Part shown: one piece after another, positions 3,313 through 45,815 of the stretch
How positions within the stretch are numbered: the stretch's first letter is position 1
Layout of the letters: the number at the start of each line of letters is the position of its first letter
NCBI GenBank assembly: GCA_019750255.1
Contig: JAIEOU010000005.1
Span: 14,078 to 78,077 of the forward strand
Length of the DNA: 64,000 nucleotides
Reading direction: 5' to 3'
Source of the DNA: Patescibacteria group bacterium
Lineage (GTDB): Bacteria; Patescibacteriota; Minisyncoccia; Phycocordibacterales; UBA918
Notes under the pieces: model-generated
The model's database searches: none
What the model saw: only the letters and a program-made list of their open reading frames with translations
Told to the model about the DNA's origin: nothing
Translations under genes and position numbers: made by a program

Positions 3313-4530
3313 ATGCTTTTCAAATACATAGCAATCGATAAGGGGAATGTACAAAGGGAAGGCACCGTTGAGGCGGCCAGTATTGATGCCGCTATTTCAG
3401 CTGTACAAAAGCGTGGCTACACAGTAACCTCGATTGATCCAATTGACGAAAAAGGTTCGATAACTGATTTGCTTAATTTTGATTTTGCAATATTTCACAG
3501 CGTGTCAAACAAAGACATTGTTATTTTGTCTCGACAAATTTCCACGTTGTTTCAAGCGCATGTTTCACCACTGCGTATTTTCCGTCTCCTGTCGGCCGAG
3601 GTAGGAAATGCACAGCTGCAAATTGTAATGAATAAGATTGTTGATGACTTGCAAGCGGGGAGTTCAATTTCTCGGGCTTTGGCGGCCCATCCAAAGGTAT
3701 TCTCTTCCTTCTATGTCAACATGGTGCGGGCGGGGGAGGAATCGGGATCGCTCGAGAAATCCTTTGCCTACCTAGCCGACTACCTGGACCGTTCGTATGA
3801 AATTGTTGCAAAAGCCAGAAACGCTCTAGTCTACCCAGCCTTCGTGGTCACTATCTTTTTTGGGGTGATGGGCCTGATGCTCACCCTAGTAATTCCAAAG
3901 ATTGCCAAAATTTTGACTGACTCTGGGCAGGAGCTGCCGATTTATACAAAGATTGTTATTGGTCTTTCCGAGTTCTTAATTGGCTATCTTCCGTTTATAT
4001 TTATCGGTGTGGCTGCGACTGGGGTGGGGATGTGGCGTTTCGCCCGAACTGATGTTGGGCGCCGGACCATAGACGAGCTGAAAATCTCGCTCCCTGTTTT
4101 CGGTAATCTCCAGCGTAAGTTGTTGCTCACCCGCATCTGTGACAACCTCTCGACGATGCTTTCAAGTGGCGTATCGATGGTGCAAGCGCTCGAGGTGACA
4201 GCTGATGTGGTAGATAATACGGTCTTTAAAGAAATTGTTCAGTCGGCTCTCTTTGAAGTGAAGGGAGGACGGTCGTTTGCTGATTCCATCGCTGAGTATC
4301 CAGAAATTCCAACGGTTCTGTCACAAATGGCGCGCGTGGGTGAAGAAACCGGAAGTCTGTCGGAAATCATGACCACACTCGCCAATTTCTACCGACGTGA
4401 AGTGAACCAAGCAGTGGACACCATGATTGGGCTCATTGAACCAGCTATGATTGTGATGTTGGGTCTCGGTGTGGGTGTGCTCTTGGCATCGGTTTTGATG
4501 CCGATTTATAACCTCACCGGCAACTTCTAA
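3313..4530 (+). CDS. pilC: Type IV pilus inner-membrane platform protein PilC/GspF
   Basis: 405 aa with a duplicated GspF domain architecture and three TM segments. Sits between pilT and pilA. Confidence 0.85.
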   Translation: MLFKYIAIDKGNVQREGTVEAASIDAAISAVQKRGYTVTSIDPIDEKGSITDLLNFDFAIFHSVSNKDIVILSRQISTLFQAHVSPLRIFRLLSAEVGNAQLQIVMNKIVDDLQAGSSISRALAAHPKVFSSFYVNMVRAGEESGSLEKSFAYLADYLDRSYEIVAKARNALVYPAFVVTIFFGVMGLMLTLVIPKIAKILTDSGQELPIYTKIVIGLSEFLIGYLPFIFIGVAATGVGMWRFARTDVGRRTIDELKISLPVFGNLQRKLLLTRICDNLSTMLSSGVSMVQALEVTADVVDNTVFKEIVQSALFEVKGGRSFADSIAEYPEIPTVLSQMARVGEETGSLSEIMTTLANFYRREVNQAVDTMIGLIEPAMIVMLGLGVGVLLASVLMPIYNLTGNF

Positions 4531-4979: not shown

Positions 4980-5477
4980 ATGATCAAAACCATGCGGACC
5001 CGCGGTTTCACCCTCATCGAACTTCTCGTTGTAATCGCTATTATCGGTATCTTGGCCGCAACGGTACTTGCCGCCCTTGGTAACGCGCGAAGTAGCGGAA
5101 ACGACGCTTCGACGCAGTCGCAAGTTAATTCTGCCAAGGCTCAAGCTGAAGTGTATGCTAATGGTAATACAACAGCTCCCGGAAGTTATGTAGGCCTCTG
5201 TACTGCTGCGAACCCCAACAGCTTGGGTACACTCCTAACGGGTATCGCTCGTACTGCGCCCGGTACCGATGCTGCTGTATTGACTGCCACTGTACAGACT
5301 GCTAACACAGACGGTACTGGGGGTTCGATTAATTGCAGGGATGCCGCAACTACTTGGGTCTTGTCTGCGCCTCTTGCTCGCTCTACGGGAGGTTTCTTCT
5401 GTGCGGACAGTACTGGCTTTAGTGGCGTAAGAACCACGCCACTACCAGCAGCCAATACTGCTTGTCCAGCTTCTTAA
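4980..5477 (+). CDS. pilA: Type IV major pilin (prepilin, class III signal)
   Basis: N-terminus MIKTMRTRGFTLIELLVVIAIIGILAA matches the prepilin cleavage/methylation motif (G|FTLIE). Followed by a rho-independent terminator. Confidence 0.9.
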   Translation: MIKTMRTRGFTLIELLVVIAIIGILAATVLAALGNARSSGNDASTQSQVNSAKAQAEVYANGNTTAPGSYVGLCTAANPNSLGTLLTGIARTAPGTDAAVLTATVQTANTDGTGGSINCRDAATTWVLSAPLARSTGGFFCADSTGFSGVRTTPLPAANTACPAS

Positions 5478-5497
5478 CAATCTTACTGGATAAAAAA

Positions 5498-5522
5498 ACA
5501 CCCGTTCACGGGTGTTTTTTTA
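5498..5522 (+). terminator. Rho-independent terminator after pilA copy 1
   Basis: acacccg-ttca-cgggtgt stem-loop followed by T7. Confidence 0.8.
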
Positions 5523-16753: not shown

Positions 16754-16829
16754 TGGAGCCGACCCGGGGATTCGAACCCCGGACCTACGATTTACGATAC
16801 CGTTGCTCTACCATCTGAGCTAGGTCGGC
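16754..16829 (-). tRNA. tRNA-Thr (CGT)
   Basis: The reverse complement is GCCGACC...anticodon loop auCGUaa...GGTTCGAATCC...GGTCGGC-T-CCA, with CCA encoded. Confidence 0.8.
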
Positions 16830-16940
16830 AATGGTAAAAATAATAGCACAAATAAAAAAGTAGATGTGACGGTGGTTTGAATCTATAAACTTTTGTTTTG
16901 TTAAATAGTAGACTAATATTACAATATAGTATCGCTCTGT

Positions 16941-17558
16941 ATGATAAATAAAAGTACCTTACAAAAGTTATATGGTGAAAAAAAGTATTCTTCTGTTCAG
17001 ATAGCTAAGGAGCGTGGCTGTTCACCGGGACAAGTTAATTACTGGCTGTCTAAGTATTGTATTAAGAAGCGATCAATTTCCGATGCGGTATATGAGAAAT
17101 CTAACCCTGGTGGGGATCCATTTAGTTTACTTAAGGTGCGCTCTAAAGAGGAGTGGTTTTTGTATGGTCTTGGTCTGGGGTTGTATTGGGGAGAAGGTAA
17201 TAAAGCTAATCGCCTAGCTGTTCGACTTGGTAACACTGACCCTGGTCTTGTCCGAACGTTTCTTCGTTTTCTCTCGACCATTTACCGTGTTGACACCAGT
17301 CGTCTACGATTTGGTTTACAAATTTTCTCAGATTTAGATCCGGTGGAAGCAAAAGCATTTTGGTCAAAGGAACTTGGTGTAAGTGCTACGCAATTCCAAA
17401 AAACAGCTACAGTCTCTCGAATCCGCCGCGGAACGTACACGCATAAGGCTGCACATGGTGTACTCACTGTTTATTTTTCAAATACTAAACTTCGTGCTAC
17501 TATCATGGCCGCAATTGAAAAATTGCAAAAGCAACAGAACAGTACACTGCCGATGTAG
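16941..17558 (+). CDS. HTH + LAGLIDADG-like (single-motif) putative homing endonuclease/maturase
   Basis: N-terminal HTH (SSVQIAKERGCSPGQVNYWLSKY). The motif GLGLYWGEGNK aligns to LAGLIDADGS (G-L-x-x-G-E-G-N). Its stop lies 10 nt inside the intron-containing tRNA-Thr. Paralog of 53323..53982. Confidence 0.5.
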   Translation: MINKSTLQKLYGEKKYSSVQIAKERGCSPGQVNYWLSKYCIKKRSISDAVYEKSNPGGDPFSLLKVRSKEEWFLYGLGLGLYWGEGNKANRLAVRLGNTDPGLVRTFLRFLSTIYRVDTSRLRFGLQIFSDLDPVEAKAFWSKELGVSATQFQKTATVSRIRRGTYTHKAAHGVLTVYFSNTKLRATIMAAIEKLQKQQNSTLPM

Positions 17559-17819
17559 CTCAGCTGGTAGAGCACTTCCATGGTGGGTCGCATGACCTTG
17601 CCCGTGCTTGCGGTAACGTGAGCAACGAATCCCGAATAACGGTTAATAGCCATGTGTTGGCCAAGACCGTGGCCTTCTTTGCAAGAAGGCCCGAACGACT
17701 GCCAAGGGAGCACCAATTAAATGGTGCAAGATACAGTCTAGCCCCTCGATATGCACATAAATAAACGAGGGTGTAAGCGAAGGAAGAGGTCTCCGGTTCG
17801 ATCCCGGACATCGGCTCCA
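17549..17819 (+). tRNA. tRNA-Thr (GGT) interrupted by a ~195-nt group I-like intron between positions 36 and 37
   Basis: 5' exon GCCGATG-TAGCTCAGCTGGTAGAGC-A-CTTCC-AUGGU (17549-17584). 3' exon AA-GGAAG-AGGTC-TCCGGTTCGATCCCGGA-CATCGGC-T-CCA (17780-17819). Acceptor, D, anticodon and T stems all pair. The rule that the 5' exon ends in U and the intron ends in G is met only for a 36/37 insertion. Confidence 0.7.
17585..17779 (+). mobile_element. Candidate group I intron (IC3-like, same anticodon-loop position as the Azoarcus tRNA-Ile and Agrobacterium tRNA-Arg introns)
   Basis: R/S-like elements form P7: cgaacGACUGccaa and aagauaCAGUCuag (compare S consensus AAGAUAUAGUCC). It ends in G (omegaG) directly before the 3' exon. 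No ORF lies inside. Confidence 0.55.
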
Positions 17820-17822
17820 CAT

Positions 17823-17846
17823 AAAACCCCGCAAGGGGTTTTATTT
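17823..17846 (+). terminator. Rho-independent terminator after tRNA-Thr
   Basis: aaaacccc-gcaa-ggggtttt. Confidence 0.8.
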
Positions 17847-17861: not shown

Positions 17862-17890
17862 AAGGCCGCCCGGTTGGGCGGCCTTGCATT
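17862..17890. terminator. Second GC-rich hairpin (likely bidirectional terminator for the convergent genes)
   Basis: aaggccgccc-ggtt-gggcggcctt. Confidence 0.5.
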
Positions 17891-18376
17891 TTAATGATCC
17901 ATGAACCTTCGAGATCGAGCGAGGTTGAATAGTTTGCTGGCTGCCCGGCGAAGGATTGAGCACGTCAGCGAGTGGTCGTTGAGTATGCCGGCATCGAGCC
18001 ACCCTGCTTCTTCCGGTCCACGAGCCAGCGTGTGTTCTTCTGCTGGGGTAACGATGACGATAGGCAAATGTATGCGATAGGGAATGTCAGCTGCGATAAC
18101 ACTCGTGGTCCCCTCAAATGGCGATTGTTGCGGAATTACCCCCGCCGTACCAATGTCCTTTCCGGTGAAGCGAAGTGCGTGTGGCCCGACTTTTTCTACT
18201 ACTAGTCTTGTAACTGTATTCAAAAGAAAGTGAGGCGGTAGTTCCTGCTCAATGTGGACAACTCCCGCCATCAGTAGACGCCAATGATACCCCGGGCTAC
18301 GCACAGCCAATAATTTATAGTTTGGGTGGGGTGAGTCCGAGTTGATGCACATCGGCATGAAACGATGACTAATCAT
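17891..18376 (-). CDS. dCTP deaminase/dUTPase-superfamily protein (putative)
   Basis: 161 aa. ...TLARGPEEAGWLDAGILN resembles the Dcd/Dut G-x-x-D-x-G motif region. Weak assignment. Confidence 0.35.
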   Translation of the reverse strand: MISHRFMPMCINSDSPHPNYKLLAVRSPGYHWRLLMAGVVHIEQELPPHFLLNTVTRLVVEKVGPHALRFTGKDIGTAGVIPQQSPFEGTTSVIAADIPYRIHLPIVIVTPAEEHTLARGPEEAGWLDAGILNDHSLTCSILRRAASKLFNLARSRRFMDH

Positions 18377-45428: not shown

Positions 45429-45436
45429 AGGCAAGT

Positions 45437-45726
45437 ATGATGATCGCCCTTTCTTCGTAAGAAGGTGGGGAGGAAAGTCCGAACACGTCCTGGGTGACCA
45501 GGAGTAGGGTAGCGGGTAACCCCCGTCCGCCGCGAGGCGCGAGGTGCGAACAGAGACGCCCAAAGTGAAAATGATGGGCTTCCTTCGTAAGAAGGAAGAG
45601 TCGTCACGGTAACGTGTCGGGTGAAACGGCAAAATCCTTACCTACGTGCAAGGCCGTGCTATCGGTAACGGCGGCAACGCCCGAACTGATAGAGAGCCGC
45701 TTGAGGGTGATGGTAACATCATTCCT
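45437..45726 (+). ncRNA. rnpB: RNase P RNA (bacterial type A, reduced ~290 nt)
   Basis: Universal P4 motif GGAGGAAAGTCCG. AGGGTAgCGGGTAACCCC, ACAGAGA, GGGTGAAACGG, and AGAGCCGCTTGA (the P4 3' strand) are also present. The 5' ATGATG pairs with the 3' CATCAT as P1. Confidence 0.8.
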
Positions 45727-45780
45727 AGGTATATGATCATCCTGTACGCATGTGCAGACAGAATTCGGCTTATATACATG

Positions 45781-45815
45781 AAACGCTGCGCCACTTAAGG
45801 CGCGGCGTTTCTTTT
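45781..45815 (+). terminator. Rho-independent terminator after rnpB
   Basis: aaacgctgcgcc-acttaa-ggcgcggcgtttctttt. Confidence 0.75.

Follow-up and report, generated by a model that had tools for sequence, protein, structure and literature searches.

The locus considered here raises the question of what separates the two halves of a tRNA-Thr(GGU) gene in a stretch of 64,000 nucleotides from a Patescibacteria group bacterium (the window, meaning the whole stretch of DNA that was analysed), how the insert would be removed, and to which known introns it is related. The parts of the locus are as follows.

16941..17558, forward strand: ORF205, which encodes a conserved HTH + LAGLIDADG-like protein and has its stop codon within tRNA nucleotides 1-10
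17549..17584, forward strand: 5' exon, nucleotides 1-36 of tRNA-Thr(GGU), with the anticodon G34 G35 U36 last (ARAGORN on the spliced sequence)
17585..17779, forward strand: group I intron of 195 nt, from G1 to omega-G195 (CM R1 and the covariation-supported structure)
17780..17819, forward strand: 3' exon, tRNA nucleotides 37-73 and the encoded CCA at 17817-17819 (sequence and ARAGORN)
17823..17842, forward strand: hairpin AAAACCCC-GCAA-GGGGUUUU with a U-rich tail, 3 nt past the CCA (read directly from the sequence)

When 17549-17584 (36 nt) and 17780-17819 (40 nt) are joined, ARAGORN folds the product into a 76-nt tRNA-Thr(GGU) cloverleaf, the CCA being encoded, so that the split cloverleaf described by a first-pass annotation of this DNA is exact in its coordinates, with 195 nt removed. 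The two sides of the anticodon stem, which the intron separates, covary and are 99.8% paired in a 100-sequence CM alignment. The 195-nt insert begins right after U36 and has G as its last nucleotide. It contains GACUG at 17697-17701 and AAGAUA-CAGUC at 17728-17738, and it folds better than all of 200 shuffled versions (z = -4.5). Just past the 3' exon, the hairpin at 17823-17842 is, judged by its sequence, likely to be the terminator of an ORF205-tRNA unit. A terminator scan lists only the next hairpin, a bidirectional one at 17862-17885.

The cloverleaf by itself fixes no unique boundary, and in intron mode ARAGORN removes 195 nt at 34/35, which yields an Arg(GCG) anticodon, while the tRNA gene at this locus is missed by default ARAGORN and by the Rfam tRNA models. 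The reading as Thr(GGU), interrupted at 36/37, is adopted because the nearby tRNA-Thr(CGU) has the same acceptor stem (GCCGAUG), U73 and U20, because the arrangement ...UGGU/intron...G/AA is common to all 121 homologs among the matches listed, because the intron-less allele in the relative L006 shows the predicted loop AUGGUAA, and because U(-1) and omega-G arise together at 36/37 only. Because the body of the tRNA is Thr-like, all 5' halves finish with ...UGGU and all introns close with a G that precedes AA, the Arg(GCG) call at 34/35 was rejected, as were the calls of His, Pro, Leu, Phe, Gln and Ala made for relatives. The neighbouring tRNA-Thr(CGU), which the first-pass annotation had placed 800 nt upstream, is indeed an intact gene (16754-16829), but its upstream distance is 720 nt and it is encoded on the opposite strand.

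Introns of this kind had been described as rare in small-genome bacteria, which overstates the case, as the class is widespread in Patescibacteria (at least 120 stretches in the homolog scan) and has already been published. Among the matches listed, 121 homologous introns (118 unique; 171-266 nt) were recovered, mostly from genomes labelled Patescibacteria; again among these matches, the insertion site in tRNA-Thr(GGU) is identical in 121/121, the 5' half ends in ...UGGU throughout, and the U before the intron and the G at its end, both pointed out earlier for the window, recur as U(-1) in 121/121 and omega-G in 121/121. The CM R1 matches 17585-17779 with 178 bits (E=5e-55), its sole match within the window, and at the equivalent genomic position L006 carries an intron-less allele, with the predicted ligated loop and with no R1 match.

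The Rfam model RF00028, by which the group I assignment was to have been checked, gives no match at the window locus, either at the gathering threshold or at E<=10. This check is invalid for tRNA-Thr introns, because RF00028 is reported to miss exactly these (Nakagawa et al., 2026, mSystems; PMC13011429). In two relatives RF00028 gives sub-threshold matches on the correct strand (24.7 and 15.4 bits; gathering = 50 bits), and in these alignments its consensus helices and its AGACUA and AAGAUAUAGUC blocks align one-to-one with P1-P9. Since the relatives align consistently below the threshold and the literature documents this blind spot, the miss is not counted as a refutation; it is a property of the model and not a defining feature of the ribozyme. 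For genome annotation this means that standard pipelines drop the isoacceptor (default ARAGORN, Rfam tRNA, RF00028) or mislabel it as tRNA-Arg(GCG), and such dropped or mislabelled calls distort estimates of the tRNA complement and completeness of Patescibacteria genomes.

Very probably, 17585-17779 is a group I intron, compact and divergent in sequence, that interrupts the tRNA-Thr(GGU) gene between U36 and A37, and the assignment made by the first-pass annotation is borne out by family-wide covariation and by the sub-threshold RF00028 alignment of a relative, which maps helix for helix. The elements of the proposed fold are listed below.

17582..17602, forward strand: P1 hairpin, in which exon G34 G35 U36 and intron nucleotides 1-3 (17582-17587) pair with the guide 17597-17602 (CUUGCC)
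17604..17626, forward strand: P2 hairpin with GNRA loop GUAA (17613-17616), both-side changes in 9/9 pairs
17631..17633, forward strand: P3 5' strand CCC, which pairs with GGG 17706-17708 (pseudoknot with P7)
17639..17670, forward strand: P4 (17639-17644 / 17665-17670) enclosing P5 (17649-17652 / 17658-17661), with A-rich J4/5 and J5/4
17671..17691, forward strand: P6 hairpin GGCCUUCUU / AAGAAGGCC, compensatory change in 3/4 basal pairs
17695..17701, forward strand: P7 5' strand, made up of A17695, bulged C17696 and GACUG 17697-17701, which pairs with 17734-17739
17706..17708, forward strand: P3 3' strand GGG (100-sequence CM alignment)
17710..17727, forward strand: P8 hairpin GCACCA / UGGUGC, covariation in 5/5 modelled pairs
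17728..17739, forward strand: J8/7 AAGAUA (17728-17733) and P7 3' strand CAGUCU (17734-17739), near-identical to the RF00028 consensus AAGAUAUAGUC
17741..17742, forward strand: P9.0 5' strand G157 C158, which pairs with G193 C194 (17777-17778) before omega-G
17743..17771, forward strand: P9 hairpin CCCUCG / CGAGGG with an AU-rich loop, covariation in 5/5 pairs
17777..17779, forward strand: 3' tail G193 C194 omega-G195, complementary also to C5 G6 C7 of L1 (17589-17591)

In the 100-sequence CM alignment (P1-P9 and P9.0), 95.8% of cells are paired, as opposed to 77.1% in shuffled and 33-46% in slid alignments, with compensatory changes at 36/55 pairs and a covariation score of 0.517 vs 0.159. 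A plain MAFFT alignment of 38 sequences gives a similar picture (95.9% paired vs 80.1% shuffled and about 40% slid; 34 compensatory pairs), an unbiased covariation scan of all columns recovers the same helices together with P9.0, and an independent RNAalifold prediction contains the anticodon stem, P1 with its U.G, P2, and P4 through P9. No covariation support comes from P3, P4, P7 or the exon side of P1, as all of these are invariant.

At the 5' splice site the wobble U36.G16 (17584.17600) is flanked by G35-C17 and G34-C18, with L1 at 17588-17596; the U.G and the two exon G-C pairs are found in 100/100 sequences, and the upper three pairs of P1 covary (GU/AU/GC/UA). An alternative register of upper P1 (G1.U14 ... 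C5-G10) fits the window only and was rejected, as the family supports 1-15, 2-14 and 3-13. The GNRA loop of P2 is kept in alignment A1. The P3 and P7 pairings are present in 100% of sequences, both being invariant and partly fixed by the search pattern, which itself set the 3' strand of P3 and part of P7 in the homologs; in P3 there are C-to-U changes only, with G.U kept, and the helix is the same as P3 in the RF00028 alignment of L122. P4 is likewise invariant and 100% paired, while P5 covaries in 4/4 pairs, with 6 pair types at its outer pair. The segment GCCAUG (17649-17654), considered as an internal guide for exon CAUGGU, was dropped because it forms the covarying 5' strand of P5. In P6 a compensatory example is the change from GG..CC to CC..GG in L011 and L116. 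The R- and S-like strands that had been proposed to form P7 are found as described (GACUG/CAGUC), with the 5' strand aligned to the AGACUA block of RF00028, and this helix, itself invariant, is the candidate guanosine-binding helix. P9.0 pairs in 96/99 sequences, as opposed to 55.9 +/- 3.4 after shuffling, with pair types GC/AU/GU/UA and CG/UA/UG. A P10 with 3/3 pairs is possible in the window (U15-A37, U14-A38, C13-G39), but across the family the classical P10 is unsupported, with 64.8% of cells pairing, no better than slid registers. With about 120 natural variants, a group I ribozyme of 171-200 nt and a well-resolved covariation map, the family offers a minimal model system for RNA biology.

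A different account would make the insert a dead mobile element that is not spliced, leaving a tRNA pseudogene, or an intron that is cut out by a protein endonuclease in the manner of archaeal bulge-helix-bulge introns. Both versions would fit the missing RF00028 match at the window locus and the failure of default tRNA finders to see the gene. A decaying pseudogene, however, would not keep conserved exons, U(-1), omega-G and a ribozyme fold, whereas intact exons, a covarying anticodon stem, U(-1), omega-G and a covarying fold are all kept in 118 unique sequences. As for an endonuclease, the insertion lies at 36/37, whereas protein-spliced introns use 37/38; bulge-helix-bulge geometry is absent at the junctions, and introns of that type are unreported in bacteria (Nakagawa et al., 2026). 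We therefore regard this account as highly improbable in either version.

What is observed for the group I intron is its split exons, its uniform site and its covarying helices; catalysis, any autonomy of splicing and the order of events are inferred by analogy with standard group I chemistry. Exon G34 G35 U36 would pair with the internal guide G16 C17 C18, placing a U.G wobble at the cleavage site, and P1 would be lengthened by intron nucleotides 1-3. In the P3-P9 core, P4 to P6 would be stacked and P3 and P7 would form a pseudoknot, the 5' strand of P7 being bulged; J8/7 (AAGAUA) would also be part of this core. P7 would bind an external guanosine, which would attack after U36; the two nucleotides before omega-G would then pair with J7/9 as P9.0 and bring omega-G195 into the same pocket, and the free 3'-OH of U36 would attack after G195, joining the exons to give the anticodon loop AUGGUAA. 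The anticodon stem of the tRNA additionally ties the exons to each other. Splicing must occur for a working tRNA for ACC/ACU codons to be made.

The last three nucleotides of the tail, omega-G included, covary not just with J7/9 (P9.0) but also with the P1 loop. Complementarity between L1 and the tail is seen in 64/73 long-L1 sequences, as opposed to 40.8 +/- 2.3 after shuffling, and 95.1% of cells are paired vs 83.9% shuffled and 7-40% slid. This has led us to consider a gated intron, where the P1 loop (C5 G6 C7) would first hold the tail G193 C194 omega-G195, which would switch to P9.0 before step two, thereby ordering the steps or making the output of tRNA-Thr conditional. Such gating would account for one tail dinucleotide having two covarying partners (L1 and J7/9) that cannot coexist, and for an L1-tail pairing that spans five pair classes (CGC/GCG, CGU/ACG, CAU/AUG, CAC/GUG and CUC/GAG). 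The pairing is just 3 bp, however, its shuffle statistics are inflated by sequence relatedness, and in the 26/99 members with an L1 of less than 7 nt complementarity is found in 1/26, so that L1-tail pairing is dispensable. We consider gating a possible but tentative addition to the group I reading. The family in any case offers a testable example of a 3' terminus that covaries with two partners, each of which excludes the other.

A P1 with 3 exon pairs and a P3 with 3 pairs mean that unaided folding and catalysis may be weak, and it could be argued that the insert, while a group I intron, is no autonomous ribozyme in the cell, and that its stripped core needs a protein helper, for which ORF205 could serve as maturase. 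Fungal mitochondria are known to have LAGLIDADG proteins that act as maturases of group I introns, and the core is indeed minimal (P3 of 3 bp, P1 with 3 exon pairs, P10 unsupported). ORF205 lies outside the intron, which is too small for any ORF, and its stop codon falls within the 5' end of the tRNA; when loci were sampled protein-first, tRNA-Thr(GGU) starts at the ORF end in 9/9 distinct loci, with the intron in 8/9, and about 40% of loci among the matches listed have an ORF205-like ORF that stops precisely where the tRNA begins. The LAGLIDADG helix motif of ORF205 is LGLGLYWGEGN, which includes a conserved acidic residue, with G76, G80, G84, E85 and G86 invariant among 30 homologs, and its divergence tracks that of RF2 (54% vs 64% identity), as expected for a retained host function. 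Against a helper role, an adjacent ORF205 is missing at about 55-60% of intron loci, intron length and architecture are alike with or without it, L006 retains the ORF beside an intron-less gene, no assignment to LAGLIDADG comes from Foldseek, Pfam or NCBIfam, and related Patescibacteria tRNA introns self-splice in vitro (Nakagawa et al., 2026). Dependence on such a helper thus appears unlikely, and ORF205 is possibly linked to the intron in function.

Two known arrangements resemble that of ORF205. In collaborative homing a free-standing homing endonuclease lies beside an intron, as with F-CphI and the cyanophage psbA intron, and WhiA-type proteins are domesticated LAGLIDADG + HTH proteins. 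ORF205 differs from both in being inherited roughly like RF2 and not patchily, and in having no Pfam or NCBIfam LAGLIDADG match; a nuclease or maturase role is putative. The anticodon-arm DNA of the intron-less gene is palindromic (CTTCCATGGTAAGGAAG). In a joint reading, which we hold to be speculative and of fairly low probability, the Patescibacteria tRNA-Thr introns (down to 171 nt) would make up the smallest lineage of natural group I ribozymes, most members of which would have a switch in place of a weak P10, where the tail including omega-G sits on the P1 loop and then on P9.0 for ligation. The HTH + LAGLIDADG-like protein, extronic, inherited vertically, encoded just upstream and probably transcribed together with the tRNA, would help in splicing or would once have mobilised the intron, and the palindrome would be a suitable target for a homodimeric LAGLIDADG enzyme. 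That many Patescibacteria-labelled lineages have the intron fixed at one site of one tRNA, that an allele without it exists and that a conserved LAGLIDADG-like ORF is a common neighbour are together relevant to the persistence of introns in extremely reduced genomes.

The intron class is already published, and the window locus is another member of it. In three complete Patescibacteria genomes, 'divergent group I introns' at 36/37 of tRNA-Thr(GGU) have been described (Nakagawa et al., 2026, Table 1, Fig. 6c), in a study that credits the class to Castelle et al. (2018, Nat Rev Microbiol), and the three cases were found with the gpI_bact_tRNA model of tFind (Williams, 2020, bioRxiv 10.1101/2020.01.27.920355). 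The same study reports that ARAGORN miscalls Arg(GCG) 34/35 in 2/3 of these genomes and that bacterial tRNA introns overall measure 184-894 nt, and it tested splicing for Asn and Asp 35/36 introns only and for no tRNA-Thr intron (Nakagawa et al., 2026). The window intron is like those Thr introns in phylum, tRNA, site, size class and tool failures, and nothing essential differs; in contrast to the three cases there, given without a covariation-based structure, at least 120 stretches are covered here. The 171-nt members, the tail that covaries with L1 and P9.0, and the frequent upstream HTH + LAGLIDADG-like ORF are not mentioned in Nakagawa et al. (2026) or Williams (2020).

The first-pass annotation had pointed to the insertion point of the IC3 introns of Azoarcus and alpha-proteobacteria, and while the site is indeed common, the site alone does not make the window intron IC3. 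With the introns of Azoarcus tRNA-Ile(CAU) and Agrobacterium tRNA-Arg(CCU) (Reinhold-Hurek and Shub, 1992; classes Ile2.5Ug and Arg.5Ug in Williams, 2020) it shares a position after nt 36, a U.G wobble and an omega-G, as well as small size, very short exon-guide pairing, a GNRA-capped P2 and no peripheral P5abc-type domain. Unlike them, it is unrecognised by RF00028, its L9 is large and AU-rich instead of GNRA, and its P3 is just 3 bp. Subgroup IC3 is marked by GNRA loops in L2 and L9 that dock into P8 and P5, and of the two, L2 is GNRA here and L9 is not. For comparison, the Azoarcus intron is about 205 nt long, with an exon-guide pairing of 3 bp. Subgroup IA is marked by extra P7.1/P7.2 helices between P7 and P3. 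These are absent here, where the P7 5' and P3 3' strands are just 4 nt apart, the spacer being CCAA in the window and ACAA in most of its relatives. In published work, none of the Patescibacteria tRNA introns falls into IC, and by sequence phylogeny the Thr introns group with the IA clade, on a long branch (Nakagawa et al., 2026).

Other tRNA introns of the phylum are the tRNA-Asn/Asp 35/36 introns, which belong to subgroup IA and self-splice in vitro (Nakagawa et al., 2026), and the tRNA-Tyr(GUA) introns found in related loci (L071, L022, L015 and L078). They are like the Thr introns in phylum, in being hosted by anticodon loops and in size (about 185-200 nt), but they occupy other sites in other tRNAs, and their P7 and J8/7 are nearer to canonical (GUAGAGACUAGAU / AAGAUAUAGUCC). 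Unlike the Thr introns, the Asn/Asp introns are detectable by RF00028, and some Asn introns hold internal HNH endonuclease genes. The tRNA-Tyr introns have the P4 block GAUAACGGU...ACCGUGG in common with the Thr introns and give weak matches to the Thr-intron model (25-43 bits). One intron of the Thr family (L052) sits on a contig labelled 'Niastella populi'.

The tRNA halves that the first-pass annotation had placed at 17549-17584 and 17780-17819 join into a 76-nt tRNA-Thr(GGU) whose cloverleaf is perfect and whose CCA is encoded (ARAGORN, spliced sequence); the split locus is reported neither by default ARAGORN nor by the Rfam tRNA model. The 195-nt insert between them (17585-17779) folds more stably than all 200 of its dinucleotide shuffles (z = -4.5). 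In intron mode, ARAGORN places the 195-nt excision at 34/35 and reads the gene as tRNA-Arg(GCG), so the intron boundary is not fixed by the cloverleaf alone. This Arg(GCG) reading is ruled out by four lines of evidence. The acceptor stem GCCGAUG, U73 and U20 resemble those of the neighbouring tRNA-Thr(CGU) (16754-16829, minus strand); the exon ends (...UGGU, then ...G at the intron end, then AA) are common to all homologs; and no boundary other than 36/37 leaves a U ahead of the 5' splice site as well as a G as the last intron nucleotide. The fourth is a relative's locus, L006, where an uninterrupted tRNA-Thr(GGU) (3601-3675, loop AUGGUAA) lies at the same genomic position, directly 3' of a homolog of the upstream ORF205, and is a natural empty-site allele. 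The same evidence settles the gene as Thr(GGU) with its intron between U36 and A37, the 5' exon ending in U and the insert in G, as had been proposed.

The Rfam group I model RF00028, the check suggested for this claim, finds no match to the window locus, also with the cutoff relaxed to E<=10. In two relatives it gives sub-threshold matches (24.7 and 15.4 bits), both correct in strand and extent, and in the better alignment consensus P1, P2, P3, P4/P5, P6, P8 and P9 correspond one-to-one with the helices modelled here, with the conserved blocks AGACUA and AAGAUAUAGUC also in register. Together with the U(-1).G pair, omega-G and P9.0, this alignment makes group I membership of the insert well supported. 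Helices P7.1 and P7.2 are absent from the structure; L2 is a GNRA loop and L9 is not.

Nakagawa et al. (2026; PMC13011429) have described introns at 36/37 of tRNA-Thr(GGU) in three complete Patescibacteria genomes, where RF00028 was likewise blind to them, ARAGORN called two of the three as Arg(GCG) 34/35, and identification came from the tFind bacterial tRNA-intron model (Williams, 2020; bioRxiv 10.1101/2020.01.27.920355). Because tRNA, site, RF00028 miss and ARAGORN miscall all agree, the window locus is a further member of this published class and not a new kind of element. That study placed the tRNA-Thr introns with the IA clade on a long branch, and the name "divergent group I introns" is used there, with Castelle et al. 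(2018) as cited in it. Its splicing tests concerned the Asn and Asp 35/36 introns only; for the tRNA-Thr intron, we infer catalysis. Bacterial tRNA introns were given a size range of 184-894, whereas the tRNA-Thr family here reaches down to 171 nt. This minimum, the scale of at least 120 stretches, the two-partner 3' tail and the frequent upstream ORF205 are not described in Nakagawa et al. (2026) or Williams (2020).

The family was collected by scanning one genome per GTDB species with a two-block core pattern, ACGACTRNCAAGGG ... AGATAYAGTC, which matched at least 120 stretches; labels among the 80 matches listed are mostly Patescibacteria lineages, including Saccharibacteria, Parcubacteria-type groups and Peregrinibacteria. 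Of the intron copies fetched, 121 are complete (118 unique, 171-266 nt); in all 121 the host is a tRNA-Thr gene, the intron follows ...UGGU and its final nucleotide is G. Other ARAGORN isotype calls at homologous loci are the same boundary artefact as Arg(GCG) 34/35. In one relative (L011), a second, tandem intron-containing tRNA-Thr(GGU) (5471-5510, plus strand) directly follows the first and is truncated at the contig end. The Patescibacteria-type intron is also present in records that carry labels of other phyla:

L052: NZ_LWBP01000002.1, "Niastella populi" isolate, 300-kb contig
L014: "Pedobacter" MAG, with an ORF205 homolog
L044, L064, L066, L083: "Gammaproteobacteria" MAGs

Since the L014 contig also encodes an ORF205 homolog, it is probably mis-binned. 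The L052 copy, with TraD-like and serine-recombinase genes nearby at 40% GC, may reflect epibiont contamination, mis-assembly or horizontal transfer.

In a model-free, all-against-all covariation scan of a MAFFT alignment, the anticodon stem, upper P1, P2, P5, P6, P8, P9 and a two-base-pair P9.0 emerged. When the group I model was written onto the 38-sequence MAFFT alignment and pairs were counted, 95.9% of cells were paired (80.1% shuffled, ~40% in slid registers), with both-side changes at 34 pairs; RNAalifold independently predicted the anticodon stem, P1 with its U.G wobble, P2 and P4-P9 from the same alignment. R1, a covariance model built from it, has a single match in the window (17575-17786, 178 bits) and none at the intron-less L006. 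In a 100-sequence model-based alignment, 95.8% of cells are paired (77.1% shuffled, 33-46% slid), compensatory change occurs at 36 of 55 pairs, and the covariation score is 0.517 vs 0.159. Covariation is seen in P2, P5, P6, P8, P9, P9.0 and the portion of P1 that lies in the intron. P3 (3 bp), P4, P7 and the three P1 exon pairs are present in every sequence and invariant, so covariation lends them no support, and P7 and one P3 strand were preset by the search pattern. The observation is confirmed, and its interpretation as a compact, divergent group I intron interrupting tRNA-Thr(GGU) is supported.

The intron's 3' tail has two partners:

17741-17742 with 17777-17778: P9.0, competing with the P1-loop/tail pairing
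17589-17591: P1 loop C5 G6 C7, complementary to the omega-G-containing tail 17777-17779

For P9.0, covariation links J7/9 with the dinucleotide that precedes omega-G (96/99 paired, 55.9 +/- 3.4 in shuffles). The last three intron nucleotides, omega-G included, covary with P1-loop nucleotides 5-7: of the 73 sequences whose P1 loop has at least 7 nt, 64 pair (40.8 +/- 2.3 in shuffles) in five pair classes, and the tool count is 95.1% (83.9% shuffled, 7-40% slid). These pairings are mutually exclusive, and it is plausible that the P1 loop would retain the 3' end until completion of the first splicing step. The P1-loop/tail pairing is dispensable, because 26 family members have short loops. The window sequence could form a classical P10; its family-wide pairing is unsupported.

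ORF205 (16941-17558), a conserved HTH and LAGLIDADG-like protein, has the identical sequence to a hypothetical protein from a MAG of the Patescibacteria group. In the protein-side sample, tRNA-Thr(GGU) begins at the stop of the ORF205 homolog in 9/9 distinct loci and carries the intron in eight; loci of homologs are arranged alike, their tRNA-Thr(GGU) inserts measuring 181-258 nt. In the intron-side sample, ORF205 is found at 40-45 of 109 loci, and introns with and without it do not differ in appearance. Its divergence tracks that of RF2. The protein may act as a maturase or may once have served in homing. Compared with relatives' loci L127 and L130, the block tRNA-Thr(CGU)(-), ORF205(+), split tRNA-Thr(GGU)(+) (16754-17819) is retained as a unit; in some relatives its orientation is reversed with respect to the flanking DUF2238 gene and, for L127, to prfB as well. 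Two hairpins follow it:

17823-17842: AAAACCCC-GCAA-GGGGUUUU with a U-rich tail, 3 nt past the tRNA CCA
17862-17885: 10-bp GC-rich hairpin lying between the tRNA and the convergent ORF 17891-18376(-), with a terminator-like score on each strand

In related genomes, another group I intron of ~185-200 nt, of more canonical type, interrupts a tRNA-Tyr(GUA) gene close by:

L071 7201-7409(-), L022 7667-7868(-), L015 2897-3111(+)
L078 948-1166(-), L034 4705-4946(+), L089 1-216(+)

Two of these genes are miscalled Ser by ARAGORN. The tRNA-Tyr introns share the P4 block with the tRNA-Thr intron and match R1 weakly (16-43 bits). The window also encodes, at 45432-45784 (+), a bacterial class A RNase P RNA (132 bits) in which a number of helices are shorter than in the model or absent.
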